The notes under the pieces: generated by a model | What the model saw: the letters and a program-made list of their open reading frames with translations, nothing else | The model's database searches: none | Told to the model about the DNA's origin: nothing | Source of the DNA: Psammoneis japonica | Lineage: Eukaryota | Assembly: GCA_008632985.1 (NCBI GenBank) | Contig: QPGO01000050.1 | Location: 372,001-436,000 of the forward strand | Direction of reading: 5' to 3' | DNA: 64,000 bases | Part shown: positions 2,383-52,004 of the stretch, piece after piece | How the letters are laid out: the number at the start of each line of letters is the position of its first letter | Numbering within the stretch: position 1 is the stretch's first letter | Position numbers and translations under genes: made by a program

Positions 2383-2383
<1 letters not shown>

Positions 2384-5309: not shown

Positions 5310-6165
5310 ATGAAAGACGATGCCAACGATGAATCACTTTATGTAGCGGTCCAGTTGCAGGAACCTTTGCTGGTTGAACAACCGAAACCTCCAGAAGAGG
5401 AATTCTGTCAGCGTCGCGTCTCGACAGGAGATACAAATAATATGTCGAACCTTTGACATTGCAGAACAGGAGCAAGAAGAAGAGGAATGGATTGGAGTCC
5501 AAGGGTTGCGATGTTTTTGGATCGCCTTTCAATGCGTATGGCCGGTAGTCATTCTTCTGAGATATATCTTCTCGGATCGTTACATCGGTATACCGGAATT
5601 TATTTTCCTCGTGATTTGTTCATCTGCAATAGTGCTCTTGCTACTAGTTTGCGGGAAGAAGAATATGAGCATTCGTGACTTTCGTTTTAGAGATGCACTT
5701 CCCACGGTGATATGGGTAGTCCTTCCATTCATCGGGGAGCATCAGTTCTTAATCTTCCTGGGAGCATTTATTTTATTTGCAGCGGTCGTTGTAGCAACGT
5801 GTTTCAAGAAAGGCCCTGCTGAAACGCTAAAAATGGGATGCGACTGCCTCTACTACAATGCTATTGTTCGCCCCTCGAACAAATTAAACTTCACCAAGAA
5901 TCTTGAGGATGATTTCTTCGAGCGGCTACAAGAGCAAGAAGATGCGGAACAAGAGAAGCTTGAAGCTCAAATCGAAAAGCTTTCCTACCTTGAGGAACTC
6001 GCTCAGCGCCACCCGCCTAGGAGGACTCCTTCCATTGCCGTGGTCGTGATGGCTGCTGTTATCGCAACGTTGGCTTTGGGGTTTCTCTTCTACGCCAGTT
6101 TTGTGTTGCTTGCCGACCCGAGTTTTGTGAATCTGGAAACACGGGTGGAGAAGATGTATCCTTAG
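5310..6165 (+). CDS. Hypothetical multi-pass membrane protein; probable frameshift near 5400-5450
   Basis: Several hydrophobic segments and a short coiled coil in ORF 5374-6165; plausible ATG at 5310 in an adjacent frame. Confidence 0.5.
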
Positions 6166-15740: not shown

Positions 15741-15899
15741 GGGCAAAAGCAAAACACACAGTCAGACAAAAAAGCGCCAGCTTTGGTTGTGCACATTGGA
15801 TTTGAATGTGCTGTGTGATTGTCTTCATCAACAAATGCAAGCATTTCTCCATTGCCGTGAGATGGAAGCATCTTGGAATGATTTTTGTGCATGCCTTTG

Positions 15900-16930
15900 A
15901 CATGTGCAATTTCCTGTGACATTTCATGTCACAGTGTTTTGTGGAAACTTCTTTAAAGTGCATGTCCAAATTAACATTTTGTGCTGATTTCATGACCCAG
16001 GATTCCACAACACCTTTTGGAATGTTTGCATCCATCATGAGCATCCAGCGCTGATTTCACGTTGTGCTGCACCTGTGGGAAGATGCCCGTGAGCAGCAAA
16101 AGTCTGTGAGGAAGCAGCAGCACCCCTGAGCCCTGAGCGGCAATGCAAACCTTTGTTTTTTGCGCAGACCACAACTTCTTGCACAAGGACACATCATGCC
16201 TCCAATCACATTCCTGGCAACATGCCGGCATGGTCATCAGCAGCTCAGAATGAAACAAGTGGCATCATCCTTGACAAAACATCTCACACTGGCACCCACA
16301 TCAGTGAATTTTTCAAGCTGATCATCTGGGTCTTTGTCATTTTCAACCTTGATTGAGAACTTTTTTGGTCAGCCCGTTGCAGTTTCTGGTGTGAACTCAT
16401 GCAACACAGCTCTCTCATTTCCCACACAGCTCACAATGGTTTGAACATGCTTGCCAGCAAATGCCAACAATGTCTGTTTCACCTGTTTGATTGACAGACT
16501 GTTTGAAAAGGCACAGCTGCAAATGGAGATGCTGGTGCAACCAGCATCAATCATCAAATCAAAAACAGCTCCTTCATCAAAGTCACTTGCACCAAAGATG
16601 GCATCTCCATGTTGATTCTTCCAAGCTCCAAAGTTGGACAGATGCTGATCTCCTGTGGCCCAAGTCCATGTGGCACGCGTGTCAAAAGGTGATCTGTCTT
16701 GCAACATTGTGCCAATGTCCCCATGTCATCCCAGACAAAGAGACCAAAGCCACTGCCCCAGTGCCCACCCACAAAATCCAACCACCAGATGGAGGCAGTT
16801 CTTGTGCAACAAAACACACTGCAATCTTGGGATTGTGCTGCACATTTTTCCAGCTTGCCCTCTTCTGCTGCTTGGGAGCTCCTTTCTGTGAAATGATTTA
16901 TGACCAATTTGCAATGTTGGGCCAGGTGGT
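15900..16930 (-). pseudogene. Hypermutated DUF2252-family pseudogene
   Basis: TGDQHLSNFGAW...IFG.SDFDEG motif and upstream VFCC.RTASIWWLDF, matching the DUF2252 FYRGTA..F..D and GD.HL.NFG/NDFDE motifs; stops and frameshifts present. Confidence 0.75.
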
Positions 16931-18046
16931 GTGGTTCCCACCACTTGCAGCTTTTGAAGCTTTTTTGCTCCAAAACAAAACAACACTTGGCTCATGGAAT
17001 GTGACAGAGTTGCCTTTGTTTTTAGCAAAGGAGGGCAATGCTTCTCCAACCATGACATTCGAGTTGGCTTTGAATTGTGAAAAGGCTGAAATGGCAAGAA
17101 TTGTCCATGATGCAACTGAGATTTTCTGTGTTTGCTTCCTGGCACTGGCAGACAAAATGTGCAGATGCAACAGGTTCCTCCTGTGGAGGTGCGCAGTGCC
17201 TCTGGGCCTCTTTCCCCTCCTGGCAGTTGACACAAACAAGAAACAACCACCATCATTTTGGAACTTTGCACACTGCCTTTTTCTTGATGGATGCTCTCAT
17301 TGTTTTTGTTGAGCCAAGATGCACCCTTGGGATCAACATCTTTCATGAACTCTCTCAAATTTTGCATGATTTCTTTGTAGAACAAAGGATGTCCCTGAAA
17401 AGAAGAAGAAAAAGATCGACATCCCCAGATCTTTTTCATGCACCGGTGCTCCAGTTTGATGCTGGATGAGCTTTTTGGAAGAAAAGTTTTGTTCCTTCTT
17501 GATCAGTGGGGGTGAGGGTGTGCTGGGCTTTGCACCTGTGCCAGTTGCTGTGATTGGGGAAGCATCCTGCACAAAAGGCCAGAGATCAGCTGTTGTCATC
17601 ACCATTTTTTAAGAGCCAAGCCACTGCAAAAGTTTTTGTTGCAAAGAGAAGGGATTGGAAGCACTTTGTGGCATGACTGGCATTCCATCCACACTGCAGC
17701 CATGTCTGGGTGCAATGATGCCCATGATGAAGCTTCCCTTCTTGGGTTCTGCAACAAGCCGACTGGTCTCACATGACAAGGAGCATGATGAGTCGTCCAT
17801 TGAACAGGCTCTGCCTTCATTGCCAAGGGCAACAACGCTGTTTTCTGATGAGACAGATTCCATCATCTGTGGAATCACAGCTTTGTTTGAAGAAGATCTT
17901 TGATGCCTTCACATGAAAACTTGATCAGCAGCTCAGCACTCCTGCCAATTTGAAATTTTCATCAACTGCCGGTGGGACTTGATCTTTGTTGCAAACTCTC
18001 AAAGTTCATTCAGCATTTTGAGAAAAGGAACAACACAACAAACAAG

Positions 18047-18185
18047 ATGAAGGTGGCTCCAACGTTTGAAATCAAGGTTGCCCTCTTGGGAAATGTTTCT
18101 GCTGGCAAGACCACCTTCCTGAATGCCCTCTTGAGGGACAAGTGCGGGGAGGCATCCATGAAGCGCATTGCTGCCGCAACTGCCC
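18047..18185 (+). pseudogene. Truncated N-terminal fragment of a dynamin-like P-loop GTPase
   Basis: FEIKVALLGNVSAGKTTFLNALL G1 motif, then the similarity stops at the domain edge. Confidence 0.65.
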
Positions 18186-18621: not shown

Positions 18622-21600
18622 TCAGCTTGACTGCTGGGAAACGCTCTCTTGCCACCTCTCTTGTTCAATAATCAAGGCTGCGTTAAGTGTTTCAAGTGCC
18701 TTCTTGTGCAACCCTTGATTCCAGTACTTTACCGCAAGATAGTTGAAAAACGCGGCCACACTTGGATAGTCATCACCTAGAGCTTTCTTTTTGATGGACA
18801 AGGCCTGCTGGTATGATTTGAATGCCATGTCGTCCGATCCTTGCTTAGCATACACCTCTGCCATCCTGGCCAATGTAATTGAAATACTAAGGCGTTCATC
18901 ACCAAATGCCGCACTTTGAATCGACAAAGCCTGCCTGTACAACTCGAGCGCCATATCGTACCGTCCTTGCTTGTCATACACTGCCGCCATATTGTGATAT
19001 GTCCTGGCTACGAGAGGGTGTTTGTCGCCCAAAGACCCCCTTTCAATAGACAAGGCCTCCTCGTACTTCTCGAGTGCCTTGTCATACAGTTCCTGTTTCT
19101 CGTAAACCAAGCCGATGTTGTTCAATGTCGTGGCCGTTAGTGAGTGGTTGTAGCCCAATGATGCAATTTCAATTGACAAGGCCTGTTTGTATAAATCATG
19201 TGCTTTGTCGTACAAACCTTGACGGTACGATGCCATTGCCATGTTGTTCAATAGCTGGGCCATCTTAGGTTGTTCCTTACCCTTCGCAGCAATTACTGGT
19301 AGGGCCTGATCATAATACTCAAGTGCCTTGTCATGAAGTCCTTCATGATCAAAAACTGAACCCATGTGTTCAACGCAATAGCCACCAGTAAGTGCTTGTC
19401 ACCCAACCGTTCTTTCAGGATTGGCAGCGCTTTGTTGTAAAGTCTTTTGGCATTCTCGAATTTTTCAGCATACAAGTTTGCGTTACCAAGATAGATATAA
19501 AGCTCCCCAAGTAGTTCGAGGTCAGAACCCGTAAGCCACGGGCGATCAACAATGGCAAGGGCATGGGGCATCACCTTCATCGTCTCATTCCATCCACTCA
19601 TCATATCAATACTCCTCATTTTAATTAACAACTCCAAGCCTACCCAATTCATAACAACCATTCGTGTCACATTCGACATGGAGTAAAAAGCTGAGTCTTG
19701 CAAAAGCCGGTGTGTGCTAATCAGTTCGTGATCAGTATCGTATTGTATAACTGCCTTTTCTTGTAGATCCTCCAGAGCAATATTAACCTGGTTACGTGGC
19801 ATCGCAGAGTCCAGCAACCAGACAGGAACACGCTCTGCATCCACGACCGAGAGATTTTCGAGGACCACCATTGCCTCGTGGCAAAGCGATTCTAGCTGCA
19901 TGCGCAGCACAATCCACACCGATTCTCGATTGTCTCCCTCAAACGTACGTGCGAGATTGAGCCTTTCATCTAATGCCTCCTCACGACGCTCCTTGAATTC
20001 TTCGATTGTTCTTGAAACCCCAATTTTTTTAGCTCGTGAGGCAAACGCAACAATCGCAAGAGGCAGGAAATCAAATGATTCAAAGATACTCAGCATCTTT
20101 TTTCGCTCGTCTCGCTTAATGGAACCTTTTACAAAGTGTTCAACAATACGAATGGAAGATTCTCGGTCAAGAGGACCAAGAGTTAACAAAGAATCTTCTT
20201 CCAATCCAGCGCTGTCTCTCGTGGTAATCACTATCTGGCAATCGGATCCAACCGCGGGCAGCCAACTCCGGACCGCCTCGTAGGATTCAGCATTGTCGTA
20301 AACAATAAGAATAGGCTTTTCGTTCTCTCTATGCGCCGCGATCACCCTGATGACACGTTTAGCTATCTCGACTTTGTTATCAGAATCTAACAGCGACGAT
20401 AACCTTGTCGCATACGCATAGCTAACCAAATCATCAATCAGAGTAAGCTCGTGCTCTGCTCGCAACCATAGAATCGCGCCATACCGAGAAGAGTTCTTAT
20501 TTACCCATGCCGTGACTAGTTGGCTTTTCCCGATACCACCAATTCCATGAGGAACTACGGTAACAGACTTTTTGCTCTTTAGCATTTCCGTCAACTGATT
20601 CATTTCCTCTTCACGTCCCTGAAAGTATGGAACTGCCTCGCGGACATGAAACTTACCCACAAACAATTTGGAAGTTATGTCGTGTCCTTTGTCCGAATCA
20701 TGTCGGCTTTCTGACACCTTTCCGCCTTCGTCAGCAAATGGAACAATTGGATCTGACCGCGAGAGTAGGATCAAAGATATCAATAGAAGCGGAACAAAGA
20801 ATAGGAATCGCCGCTTCACTTTCTTCAACTTCTTCTTTGCCTGCAAAAACTCTACCGAAGATGTGAGTGCCTCAGACAGCCGTTGAAGGCCGCCGCTGCT
20901 TCCATTGTCCGTGAGTTTCATCGCTACGGGCATTCCTTTGCTGGGCCAAGGCAATGGGAGCTTGTGAACACAGTCGAACCACCCATCCCACCCTTTTGAA
21001 TAAAGCACAGTATCCTCCATCGTGGAACACAAGGTTGCAACCACCAGCTTGAAGTCATCTTCTCCGTGATATACGGCTCTTGCACTTAGAATGAAAAGCT
21101 CCAGCATTGGCCAACGTTTCTGGACAAAATCTTTCGAAATGAGAACCATTCCAACGTTGCAGGAAAGCAGCGCATCCCGTATTTCGTCCGAAATGTAGTC
21201 GCCATCCTTTAGTGACTCTGCGTCATAGAAACAACAAAAGTCAGACGACAACTGGTCTCGGAGGGGTTTGACTGTCTCTTCTTTTTGTTCCCCGCATGGG
21301 AGAGAAAAAGGTCAAGCTCCTCTGACTGTTTTGGTTCATAAGATCTTATCAGACTGACAATCATGGTCTCGATAATGTGGTTGAGATTCACAATATACTG
21401 ATATTTCTCGGACTCTCGAAATATATCAAATTCTGACCTGTCCAGATTGATGAGTCCGCCAGTGTATTTTGCAAATTTCTCTGTGTACTTGAAGAGAGAA
21501 ACCCATATTGTTTTTGTATCCATAGAGTCTCGATGCGGCTGAATTGCTACGTGGTATGTAGAGATAAGATCATCGGAAGCCGCCAGCAGATTTTGATATT

Positions 21601-27188: not shown

Positions 27189-29663
27189 CTTTGCTTTTTC
27201 AACTCAATTTGTGAGGATCAAAACGAGACTCAGCACTCTTGCTGTTGGATCTGAACAAAGTCTTCTTTGTTCAAGGTTCAAGCGGAGAAAACAAATACAA
27301 GATAGGAAGCCTCCTTCTATCTCCGTTCGTCGTCTCTATCGCGTCTCTTTATCTTCAATCTGATGATGTGTCGTGTCAGGCTGATCGTGTGCGATGGCTG
27401 GTGCAGTGTGCAGTGTGCGGGGGGCGGCGGGGGCGGACGAATCTTTTGTTTTGATGCGCGCGACGTCGATGACGTGTAAGATTTTCTACGACGACGACTC
27501 ATAACCATTTTTTATCAACGGCCTGATTGCATGATGAGACGCTGAGAGATGGAGATCGTTGAGAAAGCACAAGGTATGATGGCAAAGAGCAAAGAGAAGT
27601 GCTGAACTGGCAGGCTCTCTCTTGTAATGTCGATCAGAAAAATGGTTCATTACGACCGGTGGCATTTCCACCTTCTTGCCGCACACACACATGATTTGAA
27701 AAAGGCGGTGACGAATCTTGTCAAGCGCCACGATGTGGGCATTCCCGCTGCATCCAAGAAATTGTGCAATGCATTCCTAGAATCTCCTGCACAAAATAAG
27801 AGCTGAAACACTGATCAATGGCATTCATCAGAGCACGCAAAATGCAGTGACATCATCACACATCTTTTCCATTGTGACTTTTGTTCCTTTCACAGACAAC
27901 TTTTTTCAGCTTCAAACCTTGTCAGTTGTGCAGCTGGCAATGACATGTCAACTGTGATAGATTGACATTTTTGTGCTGTGGGATCAGACCCCCCCCTCCC
28001 CACAAATTGCACTGTTCAAACAAGGTTTGTGCAAAAAGAGGTTCTCTCATTGGTTTTTGACACATTCGCCAACAACACATCTGTCTTCTCCAATTTCCAT
28101 GTCCAGATCCAGAAAGACTGCAGGCGGTGCTTGTTCCTGCAGCTCTCAGAATCACACACATGAAAAGTTCTTTGCCATGGCGGGCCTGTGTGACACTCTT
28201 CAAAAAAGGCATGCACAGAAACAGCTTCACTTGTTTTTGATGTGTTCACTTGTGTTTTGCACCCATCTTCTCCAATTTCTACATCCAGATCCAGAAAGAC
28301 TGCAGGGCAGAGAGTGGGGGAGGCAACCCATTGGAGGTTGCCTGAGTTGTTGGGCTCATTTTTAAAGGCTTCCCAAGTCTCCCGCTGTTTGTGGACCATG
28401 CTCCAAACATGTCATCTCGATGAACCGTCCGCAGCATGGGAGGTGTGGGGCGAAGCAAAGATGCAACCTTGCTTTCCGTGTTCAGTGCAACCCCAATTTG
28501 CTCTGACAAAGTGCTCCACAATTGCTCATGCATTGCAGGCTGCAGAAATCAGGAGGCAAAAAGAGTTGCCTCCAGATGCTTCTCCCCATCATGATGACAA
28601 CTTGGCAAGAACAGCGATGTTGGTTGATTCACAATCTCTGACCTGCTGAGCATTGCACAATTCTCAGCGCCACTGCCGGTGGCACAGATGCATCAAAGTT
28701 GTTCCCACTCAAGACCTGAACACTCTTGCAAATCTCCATGCTCTCACAGTCATGACATTGTGCGTGCATGACCATCGCCTGCAAAGATCAGAAAGACCAA
28801 ACAAACAACAAGTGCAAGCCGACACCAACAACAAGAAACCAAGTGGACCAAACCAAGGACACCAAGAGCAAACCAGCAATGGGTGACAACAAGGAACAAA
28901 TCTGTGAGTGCTTGAAACAAAAGCAGAGGCTTGCCATGCTTTGTGGCCGATGCTGCTGCAAACCTGGAAACCAAACAAGAGTGACAAGCACAACAAGAGG
29001 AAGAGCGACAGCAAGAAGGACAAAGATGAGACATCAGCTTCCCACAAGAAATGTTGTCGTCACCCCAACAGCATGATGGCAATTGACATGGAGACCCTCA
29101 CCACCGCCCTCATCACAGTGGCGGTCATCACCTCTGCTGCCCGAGTGGAGAGGCCAAGGTCCTCCTCCTCCACACATGATGCCATGTCATGGAGGAAATC
29201 ATCACCGCTGGAGAGCAAGAGGAGGTCCGCCACCTCCCCACTGGAATGGAGAGGACATGGTCCACTGCCTCCTGATTGGCACTCCAATGCAGGGTGCAAG
29301 CACACACTGTCATGAAGGAGGAGGATGCCACAGTCAGTCCATGTCTTAAGCAGGAGTCATTCACGGTGGCACAGTTGCTCCAGGAGTTGGAGTTGCTCAT
29401 CATCATCATTGAGATCAAGGAGTGTGAGCAGCAGCAGAAGCATGAGCAAGTTATCAAGATTCACAAGTCACAGTTGCAGTCTGTCATGTTCTTGTGATGC
29501 ACACTGTCATTGACACGATGCAGTCCTTTGCACTCCAACATGCAAAGACAAGACCAACACCAACAGCGCCACAGACGATCGCACCAAGGACCAGCGCATT
29601 GTGCTTGCAGGGTCCTGTCACAGCTTGTGATGCAGAGCACATGTCAGATGACCTCCCCAACAA

Positions 29664-29846
29664 TGAGCAAACTTCTGCATCACAATTGCATCAGCAGCTG
29701 CAAGATTTGGGAGATTCGAATGACCATGATTGTTGACACCTCAAAGAAATTCTGCAACAGAAACCCAAACACTGTGGCTGTGGTCAATCGCAGCTTTTCC
29801 CACAATTTTTAGAAAGCATTTGTGGACAACTTGTCAAGACTGTTCA
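29664..29846 (+). repeat. 5' LTR (183 bp)
   Basis: Aligns end to end with 35791-35976. Confidence 0.9.
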
Positions 29847-30979
29847 CTGTGATCACACTGTGTCTTGTTCTTCCTTCTCTTTTCTTTGCTGTGCATTCTT
29901 TGCTTCAAATGCAATGTTGCATTTGGCGAGAGCCTCACTGAGAGCACTGTGCTTTGTGTGCAAACCAACCTTCAAGCACAGAGATTTGGACAAAGTGAAA
30001 CTTGTGCAGAGCTGTGGCGATGGCACTGCATTCCATGCAAGCACCTGTGGGATTGTCCCGTGTGAGAGTGTGGTGGCATGCCAACCTCTTTGGGCACTTT
30101 GGGACATTGGACAGTTGCGCCAATGACAAAGAAACCAAAAGGCATTGGAGGGGATGCTCTGTTGTGTCTGCATTCGGGGGGGCAGCTCTGCCATGGTGTT
30201 GCATCTCTTTGCATTTTCTTTCCATGTGTCAGCATGTTTTCTACGTTAATTTCCACGCAATTCAGCAATTTCCAAGTCAGTTGTTTCAGCACAAATTCCA
30301 TGTGTGCAATTCTGCGCGTTTGGCCAGAATTTTGAGTTAAGACCATTTCAAGTTTCATCCTTTGTTTTTCTCATCAACGTTCTTCCTCCAAGTTTTCTTT
30401 GCAGCGCAATTCAATGTCATGATCAACACTTCACGGTGCTTCAAAGTGGGTCTTCACAAGTCTTTCAAGTGGCCAGCATTTCCAGGTCTGAGTGTTTGCT
30501 CTTTTTGCACTTCGATGCTGCAGCTTCAGCACACAACTCCTTCGCAATTCTACGCATGATGGTGTTTTCCGCAATCATCATTTCCTTTCATCGTTGGGGT
30601 CCATGTTGGACTTCCTGGATGGTTTCATGCCAGGAATTTCATTCACATTCTCTTTGAGCAAATTGTCTTCGGAGATGGACACGTGTTCCAGTTTTCTGCA
30701 GTGTTCATTTTGGTGTCTCCCAAGTGGTGTGGCTGGGCTTGTCCATTCTTTGAGGCACAGCAACTGTGTTGCCGTGTGACAAGCATCCGGTCGGTGCTGT
30801 TCTGACTTAAAAGAAACAGCTTCTTTCTGATGGTGCATTAACAGCATTGCCTTCAGACAACATGTTAATGGCGCTGTCTTTCTGACAACATTTGACGGTG
30901 TTTAAATTGCCCCTGCTGCCCTTTGTGGGCACTGGGGAGTGCGGGTCTGCCATGGTTGGTGTTGGTGTGGGCGGCAGTG

Positions 30980-32050
30980 AGGCAGCAGCAAAAGAGATTT
31001 CGTTTTTTTTCTTGTGACAATGGCACTAAGAAACAGAAGATGTGCCCTCAGTTCACTGGCAAGTGCAGTGTTGAGTGCTTGCTCCACACTGCAGAGTGCT
31101 TTGAGAACTGCGCCAAGCATTTGGATCATGATGAAGGGCCCAAAAATTCACCCATTTTGAAGAAGTGCCAGAAGACAATGCTCAAGACACACGGAGCAAT
31201 TTGGTTTCAGGTGTCGTGGAAGCAGATCGGACGATGGCCAGGTTTGATGCAGAAATCGCATGCTTCTGTCAGCGACACTGCGATCATCAAGCACATGATG
31301 CAATGTTTGAATTTTTGAAAAACTTCTTTAAACCCTTTGGTGATTCTCTTTGTGAGCATGCTGACAGGATGATTCAAATGTCACGTTGTGCTGACAAGCC
31401 ACCAGGAACTGAGCCTTTGCTCAATGAGCAGCAGATCAAGAAGAACAACACATTCACGGGCATGCCAATGATGTGGAAACAGAGTCACGCATGTGCTGGA
31501 AAGGACGTCAGCACTGATTCCTTGGAGGATGTCATTCAGCACATGTCCAATGAAAAAGGATTTGCAGATCAGAAGAGTTCTGGCAAGCCTGAAGATGAGC
31601 CCAAGAAGCACAAGGCCAGGGACATGGATCCTGCCAGGAACAAGAAGAAGTTTGGTCCTGATTCTTGTTGTCGATTGCACAAAGACTCTGCAGCACCTCA
31701 TTTGTGGCAAAGCTGCAGGGAGAATCCCAAGAGTCCCAACTGTGATCCAAAACCTCATTTTCAAAGAGGTGGCCAAGGTTTGCCAAGTGCAAGCCAAGAT
31801 GCAGGTCGTGGATGAGAGGTTGCAACCAACATCCAGGCCAAGGAAACTGTGGAGGCCAATTTTATGACCCTCAGAATGCCAGCTGCGCTGGACGTGGATG
31901 TGGCGATGGTGGATGTGCCCCTGACAACAGTTTTGGACGTGGCCAAGGTGGGCATGGCCGTGGATGCAACCAGAGCAGTTTGGGCTGAGGATGCGGTCTG
32001 CAAAATTTGCCTCAGAATTTTTGTGCGAATCAAAATCAAGTGCAGAGCAG
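30980..32050 (+). pseudogene. gag: Decayed gag
   Basis: Position upstream of the protease; zinc-knuckle-like CRLH...HLWQSCRENP followed by a Gly/Arg-rich tail; frameshifted. Confidence 0.6.
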
Positions 32051-32399
32051 CTCAGAAGAACCAAATGCTCACCTGGCTTGATGAGCTCCTCTGACTGACA
32101 CTCAGTCACAAGAGCAGGGTGCAGATGTGCACCACTTTGACATGGCATGCTGTGGTCTGCCAGGAGGTCCTGACGAGACGTCAGGAGGAACGGACATCAG
32201 ACGAGGTCCACATCCAAGAGGACCTGGATTGTGATCCAGTTTGGAGTGCCGCTCCAGTCCTGGTGTCAGCTTTGAAGTTGACAACACCATTGCTGTTGAT
32301 GTGGGGGTGCACCGGTTGAACATGATGAATCTTTGCATGATGCACATTTGTTGCATGAAAACAACAACACGGAAAATGAGAAAAATCAAGATGAGCCGA

Positions 32400-35300
32400 T
32401 GGGATTGAATTGTGATGGCATGCCAGTGCCAAAGGCAAAAGGCATGAGCCCCAACATGGCACCCACATCAGTCCTTGCATGCAAACAAATGAATGGAGCT
32501 CACTCTTCTTGCTTGTTGAGAGCATTGTTTGATTCAGGCAGTGTGGCTGCTCTTGTTCACGAATGGTGTTTGGCAAGTGGAGCTGCTCCAAGCCTGCTCA
32601 AGAAGACTGTGGGACCAATGAAAAGCAACAGAACAGTTGGTTTGGAGACAATTGTGCCACCTGAATTTGACAGATCAAGAAGCATTGATTTTCAAAAGGC
32701 TCTGGTCTTTCAAATGCTGTGCCGTTGCAATGACGTGATTCTTGGATGATCGGATTTTTTGACCAAGGCAGGAATTGACGTGAACTTCTCATCACAGACA
32801 GTCAAATGGTTGGACAAGTCCACATCTGTGAAGGAACTCACCTTTTGGGACAATGCAGAGAATGCTCATCATGCTCTTGCAGGTCCAGAAGTCGAAGAAG
32901 AAGAAACCAACAAGATCAAGTTCTGTTCATTCACCACGCAAATTCTGGATGCCAAGCATGAGTCAGTGTCTCCAAAAAAAGCAGCTGAGAGGCAAACACA
33001 TCTGTCAAGAGAGCAGCAACTGGAGTTGCAGCAAGTGCCAGCCAAGTTCCCAAAGGCATTTGATGGAAAATTGGGTCGGCACCCACATGGGTTGGTTCAC
33101 TTGCTGGAAATTGATCCCAACGTGATTCCGGTTCATCCTCGACCGCACTCAGTTCCAAAGATTCATGAAGATGTTTTCAAAAAGGAGCTCCAGTGTCTCA
33201 TTCAGACAGGAGCATTGAGGCCTTGTGGCCCCACCTGTTGGGCATCTCCTTTGTTCATCATTCCCAAAAAGGGTCAACGAGTGCAATGTGTGTCCAATTT
33301 TTGCATGCTCAACAAGGTGCAAAAAAGGCCAATCTGCCCTCCACCAAGAATTCAAGATGTTGTCAAGAAGAGGAAGGGACACAAGCATTTCACCAAGTTG
33401 GATCTGTCTGTGTTCTGTTGCACTTTGGAGCTGGATGAAGAATCCAAGGAACCATGTGCTGTTGTTGCTCCTTGTGGCAAGTTCCAATGTTTTCGACTCG
33501 TGATGGGTTTGAAGCCTGTGGCAGATGTTGCTCAAGCTGTCATTGAAGAAGTGTTGAGCGAGATTGATGTGGATTGTTTCATTGATGATGTTGGGCTCTT
33601 CTTGATGGTTTGGTCAGAGCATCTAGCAGCATTGAGTGCCACACTTCACTGACCAGAGCAAAACGGCTTGAAAGTGAATCCGCTCAAGCGCGAATGGGCC
33701 ATTCAGGAAACCGATTTTTTGGGACATTGGATGACTCCAGAAGGTGTCAAGCCTTGGAAAAAGAAAGCAGAGGCAGCACTCAAACTTGCTCCTCCTAAGA
33801 ATCACACACAACTCAGATCTTTCATTGGAGCCGTCACATGTTGTCGTGACATGTGGCCTCAGCGATCGCACGTTTTGGCATCATTGACAGATTTGACCGG
33901 AAAGCAACATTTTGAATGGACCCCAGCTTGTCAGAAAGCCTTTGAAGAGATCAAGGCCATTGTGGTGGGTGATGTGTTGCTTGCTTGCCCTGATCACAAC
34001 CTTCCTTTTCAGATTTGCACAGATGCAACCGATCATTGGCTTGGTGCCATCATCACACAGAACGGCAAGCTGATGGCGTGTTGGTCCCAAAAGCTCAGTG
34101 AAGCTCAGAGGAGGAACTGCTCTGCTGTGGAAAAAGATGTGCTTGCTGCAGTTCTTTGTTCCAAGGATTTCTGATCCATGTTGTTGGGAGCTGAAACAAC
34201 AGTCTGTGCGGATCACAAGAATTTGACCTTCAAGATGCTCAGTGCGCAACAAGTGCTTCATTTGCGCCTTTTTCTCAAAGAATTTGCACCCAAGTTTGAA
34301 TGTGTCAAGGACAAGGAGAACATTCCAGCTGATTTCTTTTTACAATTTCCTCACATGGAGAAAACCATGGAAGGGAAGAGTTCAAAGTGGAGTTGAAAGG
34401 CACCGCCATTGATTTTTCTGTTCTTCCGACTGCCATGGCTCCAGAAGACAGTCGCTTGAAGAAAATTTGGGTCCTGAATTGAACACCCCCCATTCTGCAC
34501 CATTCAAGATCAAAGAGTTGGTGGATTGCTTTTTGAATTGTCCAAGCTTAGAAGAGATGCAATGCCCTCTGAATTGTCCTGACACACAGAGGTTTCAGTT
34601 CGAAGATCATGAGCTGAGTCAAGAGCAACAGAGGAACCTGCTTTGTTTTCCAACTCAACACATCGGCAGAGCTCCGTTGATTTGTTGGAGACCTGATGCC
34701 AATGCACAAGAGAATGACCAGAGAATTGCTTTGCCAACAGCTTTGTTGGCACCTGCTGTCAGGTGGCGCCATCAAGTTTTAGGGCACTGTGGCATGCAGA
34801 AGCTCTGCTGCATGATTCGCAAGCATTGTTGCCATCCGTCGCTGCACCGATTGGTCGAGAATCATCACTGCAATGCGCACCAAAGGAACAAGCTCTGGGG
34901 AGCTAGATGCAGCTGCTTGCCACCAGGAGAAGCCCCCTCAGTTCCTTGGGATGAAGTCACCGTTGATTCAATTGGTTCTTGGAAAGCACAAGTGCAAGGA
35001 CAAGAAGTTGAGTTTAACGTGCTGACTGCAATTGACGCTGTTTCTAACCTTGTTGAATTGGCTCGCATTGACAACAAGACTTCAGATTGTGTGCAGACAA
35101 AGTTTGCCAACTGCTGGTTGGCAAGACATCCAAAACCAAATTGTTGCATTCCTGACAAAGGCGGTGAATTTGTTGGAGAACCATTTCAGATTCTGTTGGC
35201 AAGGGCTGGAATCAAGGGTGTGGAGACTGCCGCTGGAAATCCTCAAGCCAACGCCATTTTTGAAAGAATGCATCAGACTGCTGGCAACATTGTTGGAGCT

Positions 35301-35798
35301 GCAGTTGGAGAACATCCTTCTTGCAATGTGATGGAAGTTCAACAGATTGTTGACAGTGCCTTGGCTGCAACCATGCATGGTCTGCGGTGCGCCCCTTCAA
35401 GAGTCTTGGGAATTTCACCAGGAGCTCTCATCTGCCAGAGAGACATGTTTCTTGATTTGCCACTTGTTGCAGATTCAATTGCCATCCGGGATCATCAACA
35501 AGCATTGATTGATGACAACTTGCATCGGCAAAATCTCAAAAGATGCTTTTTTGACTGTCGTGTTGGGCAGCAAATTTTGATCAAGACAGATGATCCTGCC
35601 AAGTTGGAAGAAAGATCTTTTGGTCCATTTCCCATCACACAGATTCGTGTGAATGGGAATGTTGTTGCTGAGCAGAGAGCACCTTGTGTGTTTGAAAGGA
35701 TCAACATTTGGCGCATTTTGCCGCATCGACTTTGGCATGATTGGGTGGATTGCGATTCAAAGCATTTGCGTGAATCGTGGAAGGAAAGAGTGAAGTGA
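32400..35798 (+). pseudogene. pol: Decayed pol (protease, RT, RNase H, integrase)
   Basis: ALFDSGS (PR); WASPLFIIPKK, FTKLDLS, CFIDDV (RT); CTDATD..LGA, DHKNLT (RH); H..LGH, VD.IG.W, DKGGEF, NPQANAIFERMHQT (IN); in-frame TGA stops. Confidence 0.93.
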
Positions 35799-35976
35799 AC
35801 TTCCACATCATAATTGTGTCAGCAGCTGCAAGACTCAGGAGAGATTCAAATGACTGGGATTGTTGACACCTCGAAGAAACTCTGTGACAGAAACCCAAAC
35901 ACTCTGGCTGTGGTCAATCGCAGCTTTTCCCACAATTTTTAGAAAGTGTTCATGGACAACTTGTCAAGACCATTCA
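35791..35976 (+). repeat. 3' LTR (186 bp)
   Basis: Immediately follows the PPT; TG...CA; followed by gacaa. Confidence 0.9.
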
Positions 35977-37605
35977 GACAATGCGGCAGCAATGATTCAA
36001 AAGGCACAAATGTCACTTGTGCAAGTCAAAGCCTTGGGTGCCGCCAGCTCTGCTGCCGGCATGCCATCTGCAGCCGTGTTGTCTGTTGCCAAGGCTGCCA
36101 TGAATGGTGCTCTTGGATTGCCCACGCCATTGAATCTGGCTGCCGTTGTCCCTGCTGCTGCTGCTCTGACGCTGTTGCCAGTGTGCCAATTGCAACACCT
36201 GTGACCTGTCGGCAGCTGTCTCAAGCATGCCTTTTGCCACTCCTGCAAGTGCAGCCGCACTGGAACTGGCAGCAAGGATGCCAAAATGGCTCCAGGTGCT
36301 TCGTCAATGCATTTGCTTGTTCGCAACATGTTCAAGAAATACGAAGAAACCGAAGCTGGTTGGGAAGAAGAGATTTGCTTGGACTTTGAAGAAGAGTGCA
36401 GAATTGTGGCAAAATGGGTCATGTCAAACGAGCCGGGTGGTGAGATTTTACAAATTTCACTGCATTGATGGAGCCATTGCTGGTCGATGGTTTGACAAGC
36501 GGCAGTTGCAGGCAGAGTGTGTTTTGGAGCAAGACTTGCCCAAGAACAGCAAGGTCGAAAAGGAAGAAGATGCCCATGCACCAGTGGGCCAGATTGTGCA
36601 GAGGACGTGAAGGAGGAGAATTGCGATGCCTCACCCATGGGTGAGGTCATCAAGACAGAGGACAGTGATTCTGTGGACAAAGCTGTCAAGACGGTGAGCG
36701 ATGCTTCATCTGGAGCTGTCGTAAAGGAGGGAGATGACGAATCTCCAGCGACTGCAGTAAGGAAGGTCGACGACTACGTCAAAAAGGAGGAGCGAAAAGC
36801 TGCGTGGACATGTCGTTTTCTTTTTGTTTCATCACGGCAGGGAGGAAACAATGGAAATGGTGACATTAGCAAGGGGAGAACGCGTGGCTCGACAAGTTGT
36901 TGATTGAAGAAGACATCAAGGAGAGTCGCGCAAGAAGGACTTGCTTTGTCAACCAACGTTGTGGATTTGCATGAAAGAGTCAAGTGTTTCACACCCATGT
37001 GCATTTTTTGTTTTAGATTTGTGCAGAGCGATGTTTGGACGGTGTGTTCAAAGCGTCAACGGGTTTATTCCTTTTAACGCTTCCCCGGCTACGGCACATG
37101 ACGTTGTAAAGGCGTTTGCAAAAGTAGATGAATGACACTGCCAGTCTGTTGTTCCGCGTTTGAGAATACGGCGTCGCTGACATCAGTAGCGTTGAGTGGA
37201 TCACTGGTCGTCAATGCCATCACACTATGGAATGGGCATGGAAATCGTTTCAAATCGACGACAATGTTGTCTTCGAGGTGAAGCCTCTCCAGCCAGCTGC
37301 ATTTGGCATTGTCCATGCCCCCAGCATTAGGCTGTGATTGAACAAGCCTACCGATCCGACAAAAGTCGCCAAAGCGCTGGTTCGTAAGTGCGGGTTGAAC
37401 CAGTTGACAAACTTATGTCGGATGAAGGAATGCCTGTGAGTGGTGGAAAGAAGGAACGCAAAACAGGCACAGTTGGGGACAAGGCGGAGGATGGGCGTTA
37501 CAGGACATTAATTATAAATTAATTAATAAATTATTAGCTTGTTCTAATTCAGATTGCAAATTACCTAAAGCATGAGTTTCGCTTATCATGACCAGGATCA
37601 TACGC

Positions 37606-45879: not shown

Positions 45880-48800
45880 CAAAAAAAGAGTGCGAAGCTG
45901 TGCACACTGGCCTGGAGCAGTGTGGCTGCAGCACTCCTCCTTTGGAGCAAAGCTCCTGCTCTAACACATCAGAGTTTGTCTCACTGCTGGTGCCTCCTCT
46001 CTTTCTTCTCTCTCTTGTGTTTTGCCCGCCAGCCACATGCCGCCCCTCCTCTCAAGAGCACTGCAATGGATCTCTGGTGCAGGGGCTGCATTGAGAAAAC
46101 CTTTGGAGGAAGGTCTCCCATGCAGGCAACAATTCCAAGTGCCAGTGGTGCAGCTGCAAACAACAAAAAGAAAAGAAGAGCAGAGACTGTCTTCTCCAGA
46201 ATTGCAGAGCTGAAAAAAGGGGTTGTGCGCATTCATTGCTCCCCCCGCGGTCTGTGTGGAGGTGCTGCACAGCACACACAGTGTGGAGCTGTGGAGGTTG
46301 TGCCCCTGAAAGACATTTGCAAAAGATTGGCAGGCGGCATGTGTTGAGTCTGTTTTGCCAATTCCGCGATGTTGCAAGAAAAGTCAGTTTTGACCCAGGT
46401 GCTCTCCTCCTGGGGATGGGCATTTTCCAATCCCAAAGCCACAAAAGCTGATTTGTGGCATCACAGGGAAACTTGTCTCATCAGCCATCTCAGAGAAACA
46501 AGCAACAACAACTCATGACACACACCACCACATTGACAGCCTGCACTCATCGTCACTTTCAAGAGCAGAAGAAGCAGTGCTGAGCTGGCACAAGCAAGTG
46601 CGGTGCTGCAAAACTGCAAACTCAAGCAAGCATCATGGGTGCACATTTCTCAAAAGCAGAGCAGCATGACAACAGCACCCTCTTTGTCATCAAAGTTCAT
46701 GATGATGCCACCCTCATTGACCCCAATGCTCAACTCTCATGTTGACTCCACTTGCTCCTGTCGTGGTTGCAGCATCTTTTGGTGGACCCAAAAATGCCAG
46801 CCTGTTCTCGACAATTTGCCCTTGTTGCTCAAAGACCATGGCAATGGCTCCACACTTGCTGTGGCCCTGCCTCAGTTGCTCCCACAATGTTTTTTGCATG
46901 CCGGCACTTGCGATGAGCTGGAAGACATGCAACTGGCCAAACTGGGCTTGACCCAAATTCACGCATGTGGCAAATTGGTGGCTTCATTCAATGTGAAGAA
47001 GAGGCTGCATCTGTGGCAAGCGCTTGCACCAGCAATCAAGAGAGTGCTGCTGCAAGAGCTGGCTGTCAGCAGCAGTGGCAATGGAGGAGGCTGCTGCAGC
47101 CCCTCCCCCCCTGCCAACAACAGAAAAAACTGGCTGCATGCTGTCCTCCTGGTGCTTTGTCAGATTGTGGCAACTCTTCTCACATTGACCCCTTGGGTGT
47201 GTGCTTCAAATGGCATGGCACAGCTGTGTGACATGCTGCAGTCAACTGCAATGGTCACAAGGACAGCATGGCAGCAGCATTGTGTCAGTGCTGCTGGTGC
47301 AGCATCAATGGGTCACAAAATTGTCAAGTGGGCACAGACTTCAACTTGTGGCCAACCTGGTTGAGAATGAGAAATGACACATTGATTTGGGGAGTGCAAC
47401 CCTGAAGAGTTGGCTGCTTTTTGGTGGCCAAACTTTGGGGCTAGCTGGCATGGTCATTGGAGTTGACACATGATGTCTGCCATGATTTTCAAGGCATGAA
47501 GTGAAGTCATGGTGTGCAAAGAAAAAGATGGCCAATGTTGAATGTTTTTTAAGAGACTGAGCACCTTCTCTCACAGCCAATGGCGCACAGTTGGTTGCAT
47601 GTTGAGAGCAGCTGTGTCAATGATCTCATGCTTGACAAGCCCCAGGTGTTTTGAGAAATGCACCACATCATTTTCAAACCCTGTGGCCACATTTTTGCAT
47701 CAGATGTGGCATTTTGTCAAAAAAAAATGCAGCCAAAATTGTCTCAAGATTGGTGAGGCACTGGCTCCTTGCCGAGTTGCCAGGGCATCACAAATGGTGT
47801 CCCTCTTGAAAAGTGCTTGGTGGTTGCAGGATTTTTGGCAGTGAAGGTGAGGCTCAAGGAGCAGATCAGAGAGGTTGTCAAGCAGTGGTTGCCAGGGAGC
47901 TGGGGGCAAAGAATTTGTGGCAGGGGTGAAAACATCACAGCAACATGGCAGAGCAACCAAGTGGGTGCAAGACTGCATGATGCAGAGAGGAGTGCTCATG
48001 TTGAGTCTGCACTTTTTCTGGAAGGCACGGTGGTCAGAGCAAAGTGCCTGATTGCTTGTGCATCCACAGCTGTGCACGAGGGGATGGGACATTGCAGTGC
48101 AGGGTGCACGCCTGAAAAATGACTTTGAGTGGATGTCCAGCAGACTTTGCCTGAGCAAACTTGTGTGAACAACAGCACTGCACAACAACATGTGCTTCAA
48201 GAACTCAGCCTCACTCTTGCACGCAATGGCTGCCACATCATCCATCATGTGCTTTGCAGGCAGTGCACTCATTCAACCTTTGCACAGAGACAGAAGCAGA
48301 ACATTCATGCTGCAATCATCACAAGCACTCTTCAAAGTCCAGCTTGGTGTTGCTGGTGTGCATTGTTTCTCTCCACCAGCCTTTTGTTCAAATCTTTTTT
48401 GGCCTTTTCTTTGCCTTTTTGTTGTTCCACCAAAACACGCTGTTTGAAAGCCCTGGGTTTTGATGAGTGCAACATCAACTCCTTCATGATGAATTGCCTG
48501 AATCACAGAATGCACAGGAAACAATTGAACAATCCTTGCAAGATTTTGGTGCAAAAGTGGCCACATTGTGGGTTTGCTTTCCTTGGAAACATGAGCAAGC
48601 CTTGCCAGCCTGCATTGAGGCAACCTGTGCTCTCCAGCAGCACTGATGTGACTTGCTGTCCCAGGGCAGATTGTGCCAGAAAATTGAAGCAGATCAAGAA
48701 AAGCACCCAGAAATTGGTGAGGAGGAGCGCTGCTTTGCAGATGATGTGGGCCACTCTTGCTGAAGAAGTGCAAGTGTGCAAAGAGACAAACATGAGGTGT

Positions 48801-51800
48801 TCTTCTTGTGGCATCACCCATGAGCAACAGAGAAGCCCCCAACCTCTGAGGTGGACTGCACCACAGTTTGAGGCAGCCAGGCACACCACCGCCAGCAAAA
48901 GGAGTGGTGCTTGCAGCTTCAAGGCACCCACATCATGCAGCAACAAACAGCAGCGCACACTCAAAACAAGCGGTGCTTGATTTGAGCACAAAAACTTCAA
49001 ATTGCAGCATTGTCTGCACTGGCATGATGAGCACAGCAGCAGTTGTGTCACATTTGGCAGCAACTTGCCCCTGTCATTGGAAATGCCAGCTTTTGTCTTG
49101 ATGGAAGGATGCAACCAAGCTGAGGACAAATGGGCAACAAGACAATGAGATGTGTGAATGTGGGTGAATGGCAACAAGACTGTCAGCTGAGAAGTGGGCT
49201 CTGTCTCAACAAGTGCACTCTCATCAATGCCGTGCACCACCACTGTGTTGAGAGCATGCCATGCTGCAGTCTTGAGAAAGATCCGTGCAAGACGAACCAC
49301 AGGGAACATGCTGGAAGTCACAATCACACCTCCTGTCTCTCTGCCAGTCATGCTTGCTGGAGCAAAAGAGGTGCTTGTTCAACAAATGTTCAGCCAGCTG
49401 GTCAGGCAGGCTTTTGCCAGAGGGACAGAAAGATGCTCCCCTGTTTCAGGCTGTTTCAAATGTGCTGTTCAGCTGCAAAAGCAAGGCAATGCTCTGACAT
49501 TTTGACAAAAGTTTTGTGGCCCAACAGTCTGGCACTTTTTTGCAATGAACTTGATGTCACAAAAAATGTCAAACCCCTGTGTTTGTTCAAACCAAATCTC
49601 ACCTTGTGCAAAAGACCACACATCTCTCACATTGCTTTCTTTTCAACCACATCCACAGTGCCCAGCCAAACAATGAGGTCCGCTCTTTCTCCCCCCACAC
49701 CACCCACTCATGTGAGTGGCATGGGGCATGCTCACATGTGTGCGGGGGCAACAAGAAAGGGCAGAAGGCTGATGAATCAAGACAGGGTCTCTTGTGGCAC
49801 ATGAAGCTTCTGACAAGTGGACATCCTTCAAAACATTTCCAGTGACAGCCACAGATTCCTCTTGATGAGTGCATCTCAGAGATGAGGGACATGTCCAAGA
49901 GGTGGCAGCTTCTGCAGCAGTGGTGTGGATGGCAGTGCAGGATGACCCTTCTAATTTTTGCAAGTTTGGTCCTGAGAAACACAACAAGGTGCACAAAGAA
50001 GTGTTGGCTGGCAAATGAAACAATGGGTGGGGGGTGGAAAAAGTGGGCACTTTTTTGTCTGCGCATGCGCTGCAAAGCATGGTGCACCACAGCTTAAAAA
50101 AAAACCCTGACTTTGCAAATGGCTGCAGCAGAGCTGTGGAAAAAATGCAATGAGCTGCCATGTGGCAGAGCTGAGAAGCTCCTGCTCATTTGTGTCACAT
50201 GGCACATGAGCCAGACTGGGGTGCAAAGTCAAGCCACATGCCACAGAAGAGTTCTGCATCTTGTCGGGCCTCCTTGGCAATGATGCCTCCATTCCGAATT
50301 CACATGATGGCACAGCTGAAGTGCTGGCAAGAAAGGAACCAGAAGGAGAGGTGCAAATGTTTTGGGAGCTCAAAGTGCACAAGTGCACCTCTTTCTGTCT
50401 GTGTGGTGTCACATGCATCCCACAGAATCTGAGCAGCCAAGCCTTGCACTTTCTGCATGCATCATCACCTGCTGACATGTGGCATGCACAAGAGTGTTTT
50501 TGGGCATGCAGGGTTGCCACCAGAAGGGGCTTGCTGCCAACCCAGCAATGTGGGCAATGTTGCCAGTCAGCAGGAGCACCTTCTCCAGATCCTCTCACAA
50601 CTCAGCAGTGTTTGCAGCTTTGTGTCAGCTCTTTTGGTGTGGCCCAGGCTGCAGCTGCAGCTGGCATTGTGACTCATTCCCTTTCAGTCATTTCCACAGA
50701 GCCAAGAAGCTCTGTGTTTTAAACCATGCCAACAAAAAGAGAAGAGAACAACACTTTATTTTTGCCTCATGTGCTTGCAGGCTTCTGAATGTAGTTTGCA
50801 CAGTTTTCAGCAATTGAGCTTGACAACTTTTCTGACAAATCAAGGCGTGCCATTCCCAAGAGCAGCTGACTTTGCTTGTTGAGTTCTTCCAAGAGCATGT
50901 CGCAAAACAAAGCATTCCACCCCCCATGCCACTGATCCACCCCACTGGTGTGCCATCTGTTGCACTGTTGATCACCAGTCAACTGAGCTGCTCTCATGGT
51001 GGTGGCACCAGGGGAACCCTTCATGACTTGCTCCACCCCCAAGCTTGTCAAATTTTGAGATCCAAAAGGCTTTCCAGATTCAAGGCAGCAAAGTTGCCAT
51101 CACAATCACTGCCATCAATGAGCACTTTTGTCCAGACATGGCATCTGCTTGCTGAGAAGATTGGAGGAGAGAGTTTTCTCTTGGGTGTGCAAAATGTGCA
51201 AACCCAAATGAACCCCCTCTCTCTTCTTTTCCGGCTGCTGGGGATCACACACCATCCCTGGCCTGCTGCCAGCTGCAACTCCCTCCAACTGGCATGAATG
51301 CTCTCACACAAGTCTGGGGTGCAAACACAAACATCTGGAGTCCTTCTTGGGTTTCAGCATTGTGCTGACATTGCTGTGCCATGGGAGCAGAAGTGTGGGA
51401 TGCTGTGTGCATCACAGATTTGATGGATGAAGTGGTGTGCTGGCAAGGCAGCAGAGAGTCCAGGGGGGTGTCAAGAACACAGCACTGCTGGTTGTGACAA
51501 CTTTTGCAGCAGCTGCACTTTTAAAATGCAAGCAAATGACACACAAATGGGGCAGAGCATGTGTGTCAAACAAAAATTTTTTTTTAAACAAAAAAAGAAA
51601 GGTTGAGATTTGCACCAAGCCACACTCTGCTGGGTTTGACACAGCAGCTGCAGTCTGTGTTTTCAACTTTTTGCTCACAGAGGCACATCTTGCCGTTGAG
51701 CTCTTGTTGCTGTGCCATCTTCCTTTCTCATTTGGGGTCAATCAGCTCATGGGCTGTCCTGTCTCCAACTTCTCTGGCCTGGAGCAACCCTGTGAAACAA

Positions 51801-51826
51801 CACACCCGATGACATGCCCGTTCAAG
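45880..51826. other. Hypermutated domain 3 (TpA/CpG-depleted) of unidentified relics
   Basis: Same signature; TA returns abruptly at ~51827 (gtaactgtaattttaaaaattatac). Confidence 0.92.
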
Positions 51827-52004
51827 TAACTGTAATTTTAAAAATTATACAGCATTGAAGGAAGATAAATGAACTTGCACGAAAAAAATTTCGGAATCTC
51901 ATCGCAATCTGCGAACTTCATCACCATCACTCATCCAACACGACCGGACCTACCTCTGCCACTGCGTGCCTCATTCGTCTTCGGAGCAGGCGACTCGCAC
52001 CATC

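Follow-up and report, generated by a model that had tools for sequence, protein, structure and literature searches.

A Dead Ty3/Gypsy Retrotransposon of the Diatom Psammoneis japonica Within a Block Depleted of TpA and CpG

Introduction

The DNA considered here, referred to as the window, is a 64-kb stretch from the diatom Psammoneis japonica (GenBank assembly GCA_008632985.1, contig QPGO01000050.1, positions 372,001 to 436,000 of the forward strand), and all coordinates are given in window positions. A repeat search, alignments, Pfam and tblastn identify positions 29664–35976 of its plus strand as a degenerate, dead retrotransposon of the Ty3/Gypsy group, bounded by a pair of long terminal repeats (LTRs). 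The two LTRs differ mainly by reciprocal exchanges, termed swaps, in which one repeat reads CA where the other reads TG, and the element is nearly devoid of the dinucleotide TA and has lost much of its CG. A preliminary description of this DNA had singled out the LTR pair as an internal control. That observation is confirmed, and its interpretation is supported and extended: TA is a target of mutation, CG is a target too, and the changes at both can be timed to the period after insertion.

Architecture of the Element

The features of the element, together with those recognized in the depleted DNA around and upstream of it, are collected in Table 1.

Table 1. Features of the retrotransposon and of depleted DNA in the window.
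Feature	Position	Strand	Remarks
Left target-site duplication, AACAA	29659–29663	+	Read directly; four of five bases match the right copy
5′ LTR, 183 nt, TG...CA	29664–29846	+	CA, TG, CA, TG, CA, CA, CA, TG, TG at the nine swap sites
Leader and gag-like region	29847–32401	+	Many TGA stops
Degenerate pol: protease (DSG), reverse transcriptase, RNase H	32402–34369	+	tblastn of intact relatives
Integrase part of pol, other frame	34434–35732	+	tblastn, residues 708–1138 of intact relative P0121, 59% identity
Polypurine tract, GGAAGGAAAGAG	35779–35790	+	Abuts the 3′ LTR
3′ LTR, 186 nt, TG...CA	35791–35976	+	Opposite dinucleotide at all nine swap sites
Right target-site duplication, GACAA	35977–35981	+	Contig of an empty-site paralogue resumes at 35977
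Depleted block 2	27960–36990	.	Holds the element with ~1.7 kb and 1.0 kb of flank; repeat-derived
Class II aminoacyl-tRNA synthetase, core fragment	9658–10056	+	Pfam E 2.5e-6; block 1
DUF2252 fragment	16372–16725	−	Pfam E 2.6e-11; block 1

The first part of pol corresponds to residues 22–685 of the intact relative P0121 at 55% identity (tblastn), is interrupted by in-frame TGA stops at 32747, 33650 and 34172, and is separated from the integrase part by one frameshift between 34369 and 34434. Pfam recognizes the RNase H domain above its curated cut-off (RT_RNaseH_2, E 2.2e-18), while the matches to RVT_1 (E 0.003) and rve (E 6e-4) both fall below theirs. The order of reverse transcriptase, RNase H and integrase is also that found by tblastn, in which 13 intact pol proteins (995–1676 amino acids, taken from public assemblies) match the two parts of pol at 29–59% identity. 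The gag-like region matches no known family, and the open reading frames tested there have no Pfam hit. A purine tract similar to the one in Table 1 precedes the start of the LTR in other copies, as seen in a loose-end consensus at 29666 built from contigs of sequencing runs (run contigs). No further copy of the LTR or the interior was found within the 64-kb window, and a degenerate LTR pattern gave no match among metagenome contigs.

Ty3/Gypsy elements of marine protists (P0121–P0133 and L001–L078) share the domain order protease–reverse transcriptase–RNase H–integrase, are 43–59% identical to the window element in pol, and likewise combine short LTRs with a length of 5–6 kb. These relatives differ from the dead window copy in having an open pol of 1000–1100 amino acids and a normal TA content (o/e 0.43–0.94), with CG mostly normal.

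One Insertion, Changed After Integration

The LTR pair belongs to one insertion, since it is flanked by a target-site duplication that matches at four of five bases, preceded by a polypurine tract at the 3′ LTR, ended by TG...CA, and joined at 35977 to sequence that also exists without the element. With regard to the duplication, the mismatched base of the left copy (AACAA against GACAA) is preceded by C and can be explained as a CpG to CpA change (G to A). The joint was seen in a single contig, found in both sequencing runs X1 and X2, that matches both flanks at ~86–90%, skips the element and resumes exactly at 35977. That both LTRs bracket a single insertion is thus supported, and the alternative raised in the preliminary description, that they derive from different elements, finds no backing in the duplication or the joint. 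Because the flanks and both LTRs surround one insertion, the differences between the LTRs arose after it, in chromosomal DNA, as had been proposed.

The flanks are a copy of DNA present elsewhere without the element. This paralogue (window 28852–29607 plus 35977–37254) keeps CpGs that are lost in the window. Its contig has a depth of 232 in run X2 and 57 in run X1 and contains further skips; it may represent an expressed, spliced gene of which the window copy is dead.

Divergence of the LTR Pair

A global alignment of 29664–29846 with 35791–35976 contains 28 differing columns out of 186; the repeats are 86% identical over 179 nt. Eight CA/TG swaps are unambiguous (29668/9, 29676/7, 29689/90, 29725/6, 29755/6, 29817/8, 29821/2 and 29841/2). 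A ninth, at 29707/8 (TTTG versus CTCA), depends on the placement of a 2-nt gap in a GA run; the automatic count is eight. Two further sites read CG in one LTR and CA in the other (29717/8 and 29742/3), and one reads TA and CA (29682/3). What remains amounts to two T/C transitions (29706 and 29750), two transversions (29727 T/G and 29774 G/C) and two indels, one of 1 nt and one of 2 nt. At 29727 all 11 run contigs read G, and the T is private to the 5′ LTR. The earlier manual tally, comprising nine CA/TG swaps, two CG/CA sites, one TA/CA site, about four other substitutions and small indels, is reproduced by this alignment.

Chance yields nothing of the kind. When 23 transitions and two transversions were placed randomly on the 183-nt LTR in 20,000 trials, no swap arose in 10,333 trials, one in 7,166, two in 2,120, three in 351 and four in 30, and never more than four; the mean was ~0.6, against nine observed. 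The preliminary description had suggested that target and non-target divergence be compared across other LTR pairs. Eight diverged pairs from related elements in metagenome contigs (85–96% identity, 3149 columns) contain no swaps and retain 84 shared CG and 189 shared TA. Within the window, the swap pattern appears a second time in another depleted block, block 1, in an old direct duplication (13397–14449 and 14511–15793) that is 69–71% identical and without a single shared TA, with 9 and 11 swaps in its two duplicate pairs. Of the three repeat pairs lying elsewhere in the window, outside such blocks, two have no swap and the other has two.

The dinucleotides common to both LTRs bear on how far the process has gone. 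One CG, one TA, 16 CA and 12 TG are shared. The sole shared TA lies in TTTTTAGAAAG, a YTAR context, while the half-converted TA site was an RTAR that became RCA. Given nine discordant sites, about nine concordantly converted sites would be expected among the 28 shared CA and TG, which implies ~23 ancestral CG plus TA sites in 183 nt (12.5%; control LTRs have 9–15%). By this arithmetic, ~39 of 46 site-copies have been converted (85%), compared with four substitutions in ~137 non-target bases. Expressed per LTR, as a historical estimate, ~85% of targets have changed versus ~1.5% of other bases. The ratio of hazards per dinucleotide would then be of the order of 100, with a wide interval since its denominator consists of four events. 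The claim that target sites are nearly saturated, at a rate far above background, is therefore upheld.

TA and CG as Targets

The element contains 22 TA, 125 CG, 635 CA and 686 TG, corresponding to observed-to-expected ratios (o/e) of 0.05 for TA, 0.36 for CG and 1.6–1.8 for CpA and TpG. For comparison, 78 related loci (361 kb) were fetched from metagenome contigs by peptide patterns containing Tyr. Their TA o/e ranges from 0.43 to 0.94 and their CG o/e from 0.27 to 1.40, and none is TA-depleted, although such patterns exclude mutated relatives by design and are silent on how frequent the process is elsewhere. At the densities of these relatives, an element of this length would carry 342 TA and 318 CG, so that survival comes to 6% for TA and 39% for CG.

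As the preliminary description had recognized, swaps alone cannot tell CG from TA ancestry, and the codons of pol are needed to show TA as a source. The read-through translation of pol was aligned with ten intact relatives, and 531 columns were considered in which at least seven of the ten agree. Not one of 23 conserved Tyr is kept in the element: 13 are now Cys (TGY), seven His (CAY), and one each Asn, Phe and Arg. Tyr is encoded by TAY, and the losses to Cys and His are therefore TA to TG and TA to CA changes. In contrast, each relative scored against the other nine keeps 16–20 of 20–23 Tyr and shows 0–2 changes to Cys or His. Conserved Arg codons tell of CG in the same way. Twenty of 41 are kept (11 AGR and nine CGN) and 17 have become Gln (seven), Cys (four), His (three), stop (two) or Trp (one), versus 0–2 CpG-type Arg changes in each relative. 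Among the 149 differing columns, 45 fit one TA to CA or TG step and 31 fit one CG to CA or TG step. TA is thus demonstrably a target of the process. CG is a target too, and CpG decay is real and substantial in the same DNA.

The stop codons carry the same imprint. All 11 in-frame stops of pol are TGA, as are 152 of the 167 stops over the three plus-strand frames of 29664–35976 (TAA 11, TAG 4). Stop-codon usage alone flags the process in such blocks, which also contain long spurious open reading frames on both strands. Other copies of the family, which is multicopy, differ in the run contigs at 1291 transition and 230 transversion places. Run X2 contributed little to this comparison, and no contig of run X3 aligned to the region, which does not speak for absence.

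It follows that the loss of the interior cannot be traced to CG alone, with Tyr at 0 of 23 and a TA o/e of 0.05; for individual LTR swaps, the two ancestries look the same. Using the survival values with either interior or control-LTR densities, an estimated 72–84% of doubly converted sites would be TA-derived, and the probability that all nine swaps were once CG would be ~1e-5.

Strand Symmetry and Sequence Context

Both targets are palindromic, and the preliminary description held that each site was resolved independently on either strand. This is borne out by the events inferred in pol: those of TA origin gave 26 TG and 19 CA, those of CG origin 12 TG and 19 CA, and the outcomes are interleaved. 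No signal of processive one-strand runs was found (19 runs versus 22.9 expected, P 0.14). With both strands affected and the outcomes interleaved, editing of the sense RNA is excluded.

The survival of TA depends on its neighbors. In the element, 0 of 101 RTAY, 4 of 112 YTAY, 1 of 65 RTAR and 17 of 64 YTAR sites survive (Fisher 4.6e-9). Expressed differently, 17 of 22 surviving TA in the element and 40 of 59 in all depleted blocks lie in YTAR, the share of this context being 19% both among the relatives and across the genic part of the window. The block-wide counts fit two independent, strand-specific hits at 5′-TA, each ~3 times faster when a pyrimidine follows the A. CG survival shows little dependence on context (33–48%). 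A WA signature of the kind left by DNA polymerase eta was also considered, with respect to two non-target transitions at ApA on the other strand, and was set aside, as two events are too few.

Depleted Blocks of the Window

A scan of dinucleotide o/e in 1-kb steps, with edges taken from lists of TA and CG sites, reveals three sharply bounded blocks at ~6.85–18.14, 27.96–36.99 and 46.03–51.80 kb. Inside them, TA o/e is 0–0.13, CG o/e 0.05–0.59, CA and TG o/e 1.4–2.3 and G+C content 0.44–0.51; over 7001–18000, 28001–37000 and 46001–52000, CA and TG o/e average above 1.52. The genic remainder of the window has TA o/e of 0.44–0.80 and CG o/e of 0.68–1.34, and the G+C content of the blocks is unchanged relative to their surroundings.

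Block 2, which houses the element, has TA o/e of 0–0.12, CG o/e of 0.26–0.59, CA/TG o/e of 1.36–2.25 and G+C of 0.45–0.51 in the same scan. The depth of run X1 contigs climbs from ~52 to 100–6200 over 27702–37178, and the rise at ~27.70 kb lies near the left edge of the block. Block 2 thus roughly overlaps DNA of raised depth, yet similarity to the flank paralogue reaches at least 37254 while depletion ends near 36990. At the left edge, 27702–28403 is a very high-copy repeat, with a summed depth of 2150–6200 versus ~52 for unique DNA (X1). In the right flank (36000–37000), a TA o/e of 0.10 stands beside a CG o/e of 0.59, a mild reduction, which shows that the loss of one dinucleotide need not go strictly with that of the other.

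The other blocks show no tblastn match to the pol relatives of the element. Block 1 (6850–18140) is the largest, with TA o/e of 0–0.04 and CG o/e of 0.09–0.25. A Pfam search of 53 block open reading frames returned only its aminoacyl-tRNA synthetase and DUF2252 fragments, and block 1, instead of being a transposon, may represent a duplicated gene that has mutated, or DNA of foreign (viral or bacterial) origin. Block 3 (46030–51800; TA o/e 0–0.13, CG o/e 0.05–0.26) has long stop-free frames on both strands, because TAA and TAG cannot exist without TA; no Pfam match was found among its 17 open reading frames.

The genes of the remainder include, adjoining block 1, a 672-amino-acid open frame on the minus strand (19293–21311) with TIR, NB-ARC and TPR matches, whose predicted product resembles a STAND-type immune receptor. 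An exon of 6-phosphogluconate dehydrogenase has its best named matches in ochrophytes (65–71%). The top named matches of a DEAH helicase open reading frame (59–70%, down to 59%) are all diatoms, namely Attheya, Fragilaria, Seminavis, Cylindrotheca, Pseudo-nitzschia, Nitzschia, Mayamaea and Epithemia, and its best unnamed match reaches 81%. The host is accordingly a diatom and not Bigelowiella; a search for the spliced-leader motif of dinoflagellates gave no match.

Comparison with Known Systems

A similar signature has been described in Bigelowiella natans (Mettrop et al. 2026, bioRxiv 10.64898/2026.01.13.699255). According to the main text of that preprint, two integrated viral regions mutate ~1000-fold faster than the remaining genome in mutation-accumulation lines, and the changes are almost only A to G and T to C, all at TpA. 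The genome also contains 124 clusters that are TpA-poor and rich in CpA plus TpG, and its TpA-poor genes are enriched in reverse transcriptase and DDE domains. An ADAT2-like deaminase is proposed there, as a candidate only. The resemblance to the window lies in the conversion of TpA to TpG or CpA according to strand and in the sharply delimited regions, and the process in B. natans is proposed as a defence against foreign and mobile DNA.

There are also differences. B. natans is a chlorarachniophyte (Rhizaria), whereas the window host is a diatom (Stramenopila). Going by the same main text, the evidence in B. natans consists of de novo mutations, while that in the window is historical (the LTR pair and codons). 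TA o/e is 0–0.1 in the window as opposed to a Rho of 0.45 in the nucleocytoplasmic large DNA virus (NCLDV) region of B. natans, although its class of TpA-poor coding sequences is about as empty. The window blocks have also lost CpG (o/e 0.36 in the element and 0.05–0.25 in the others), whereas the spectrum described for B. natans is almost exclusively AT to GC, with a low GC to AT rate in its viral regions. The words CpG, LTR and retrotransposon are absent from the main text of the preprint, as are flanking, trinucleotide and context; its supplements may hold context data. The resistance of YTAR seen in the window accordingly has no counterpart in a context analysis in that main text. The CpG loss of the window may represent a second, independent process. 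Literature searches found no published report of this TpA signature in diatoms.

Repeat-induced point mutation (RIP) of fungi invites comparison, since it likewise introduces transitions in place, block by block, into repeated or mobile DNA on both strands, kills open reading frames while changing little else, and leaves a dinucleotide signature. Its direction differs: as described in PMC2621366, RIP changes C to T mostly at CpA and enriches TpA, whereas the window has lost TpA and gained CpA and TpG. With a TpA o/e of 0.05 and CpA/TpG o/e of 1.6–1.8, the fungal signature is ruled out. Diatoms possess DNMT4, a protein of no known function related to RID, the enzyme behind fungal RIP, and methylation of transposable elements occurs in these organisms (Hoguin et al. 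2023, PMC9998398).

The CpG decay of methylated transposons, as in vertebrates, plants and diatoms, resembles the CG o/e of 0.05–0.6 and the change of Arg CGN codons to Cys, His, Gln, Trp or stop. It would cover ~40% of the inferred window events and none of the TA loss. Four of the related loci from other hosts (L057, L072, L061 and L066) have CG o/e of 0.27–0.45 with TA normal to mildly low (0.48–0.81), and are cases of plain CpG decay without the TpA process.

Proposed Mechanism and Rival Explanations

The reading preferred here, with a probability of roughly 0.8, is that a Ty3/Gypsy insertion was later hit in place by two transition processes, each specific for one dinucleotide and acting on either strand. 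It accounts for an observed signature that is restricted to blocks, postdates insertion, falls symmetrically on two strands and carries a context bias. The element would have inserted into already repeated diatom DNA and subsequently died. Since then, two processes would each have turned a self-complementary pyrimidine–purine step into CpA or TpG. The faster one would convert TpA to TpG or CpA (A:T to G:C) to near saturation, acting ~3–4 times more slowly at YTAR than at sites with TAY on either strand. The other would convert CpG to TpG or CpA, as usually happens when 5-methylcytosine is deaminated in silent DNA that carries CpG methylation. As the target is palindromic, the strand struck would be a coin toss, and two copies of a site would therefore end as CA/CA, TG/TG or CA/TG, the last being a swap. 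G+C content would stay constant because the two processes cancel.

By analogy with the proposal for B. natans, the TpA process would be an enzymatic deamination of adenine (A to inosine to G) by a deaminase of the TadA/ADAT2 type. The requirement for a 5′ T recalls the U33–A34 substrate of these enzymes. The CpG process would be driven by methylation, and the block would have been targeted because it is repeated or silenced; candidate triggers are repetition, of the kind that sets off RIP, and a spread of heterochromatin out of the transposable element. A more far-reaching version, offered tentatively and at somewhat less than even odds, is that diatoms defend themselves by block-targeted DNA editing, which erases TpA (A to inosine to G, with TAY preferred) from silenced DNA, namely transposons, pseudogene copies and other such sequences, alongside CpG methylation decay, and that this is the same system as in Bigelowiella. 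Such a shared defence would either be ancient in the Stramenopila–Alveolata–Rhizaria (SAR) supergroup or have evolved repeatedly, and a single machinery might even recognize both of the palindromic YpR steps.

Several points weigh against the proposal of two in-place processes. No LTR swap is directly assigned to TA, and one X1 contig reads C and then G at 29725/6, where the letters near a joint are not fully clear, which weakly suggests that this swap had a CG ancestor. In the left flank, 10 of 13 transitions listed against the paralogue contig, at the best-supported places, read CA or TG in the window and CG in the paralogue, so that the differences listed show ten CG origins and no TA origins in ~150 nt. 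The variant table of the run contigs covers the best 40 of 1524 variant places, and these do not include what other copies read where the LTRs are swapped. In pol, 73 of the 149 protein differences fit neither process, in a comparison with relatives that are at most 59% identical. The ancestral densities of TA and CG are proxies taken from elements of other hosts and from neighboring genes. The pattern produced by A to G would look no different if T were instead changed to C by way of a modified thymine. Some interior changes could predate insertion if a dead copy was mobilized in trans. Finally, the window may have been assembled from run X1, which for that reason does not independently disprove an artefact of the consensus.

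The simplest competing account would have CpG decay acting alone on a formerly CpG-rich element, generating the swaps and the excess of CA and TG, with the poverty in TA being ancestral. It draws on the CG o/e of 0.36, the 17 of 41 altered Arg, the TGA stops, the ten paralogue differences of CG origin, the contig with CG at one swap site and the existence of relatives that lose CG only, such as L057 (CG 0.27, TA 0.81). It is nonetheless very improbable, and for the interior already contradicted: CpG decay cannot produce 0 of 23 Tyr with 20 now TGY or CAY, none of the 78 related loci has a TA o/e below 0.43, and 45 differences need a TA ancestor. In addition, it would lower G+C content, which is unchanged, and would need all nine swaps to have been CG. 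A misreading of modified bases, in which true CG or TA is displayed at random as CA or TG in the consensus, would mimic both the random resolution and the blocks without CG or TA, and run X1, whose library type is not on record, may be the source data. This too can be given almost no weight. The k-mer contigs of X1 (depth ~52) need accurate reads and include 271 pieces at least 99% identical to the window, also inside the element (34520–35014, four other letters in 495); they differ from the window at scattered sites and are thus not a copy of the assembly. The frameshift, transversions and indels show real decay, and no platform is known to misread methylated CpG at near 100%.

Two further accounts retain the TpA events and change their agent or timing. 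An ADAR- or APOBEC-like enzyme might have edited RNA or cDNA before integration, the LTR differences then reflecting a recombinant of two edited copies. The family is multicopy with mostly transition differences, and the B. natans preprint (bioRxiv 10.64898/2026.01.13.699255) describes a preference for U/T on the upstream side as typical of ADARs. Editing of this kind is scarcely credible here, in that sense-RNA editing yields TG only rather than 26 TG and 19 CA, both outcomes are interleaved within each LTR, the target-site duplication and empty-site joint indicate one insertion, and the non-element flanks and two blocks unrelated to the pol of the element are equally depleted. Alternatively, the same in-place TpA process might act on thymine, through modified or oxidized T (such as 5-hydroxymethyluracil or 5-formyluracil) that an enzyme of the TET/JBP type would produce at RTA, with T to C as the result. 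Modified T bases mispair with G, and some protists carry such bases at TpA. At a palindromic site, A to G at TAY equals T to C at RTA in all counts, and block-wise targeting fits a chromatin mark. The thymine route is still unlikely, if less so than the other three: the literature examined reports nothing of this sort from diatoms, and the only published proposal for the signature, in the main text of the B. natans preprint, is the ADAT2-like deaminase.

Significance

What is new in the window is that a kind of system first described only very recently occurs in another major lineage, with a context rule and the co-decay of CpG in addition. The LTR pair provides a clock-like internal control that the published case lacks, placing the changes after integration, in chromosomal DNA, on both strands and at ~100 times the rate of other sites. 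The sparing of YTAR is a testable sequence rule able to discriminate between candidate enzymes. Such blocks also have practical consequences. They defeat homology-based annotation of transposable elements and genes, because Tyr and Arg codons are systematically rewritten, and they bias LTR-divergence dating unless YpR sites are masked. If the interpretation is true, diatoms would be a second eukaryotic lineage, and an ecologically major one, with TpA-specific hypermutation of mobile or foreign DNA.

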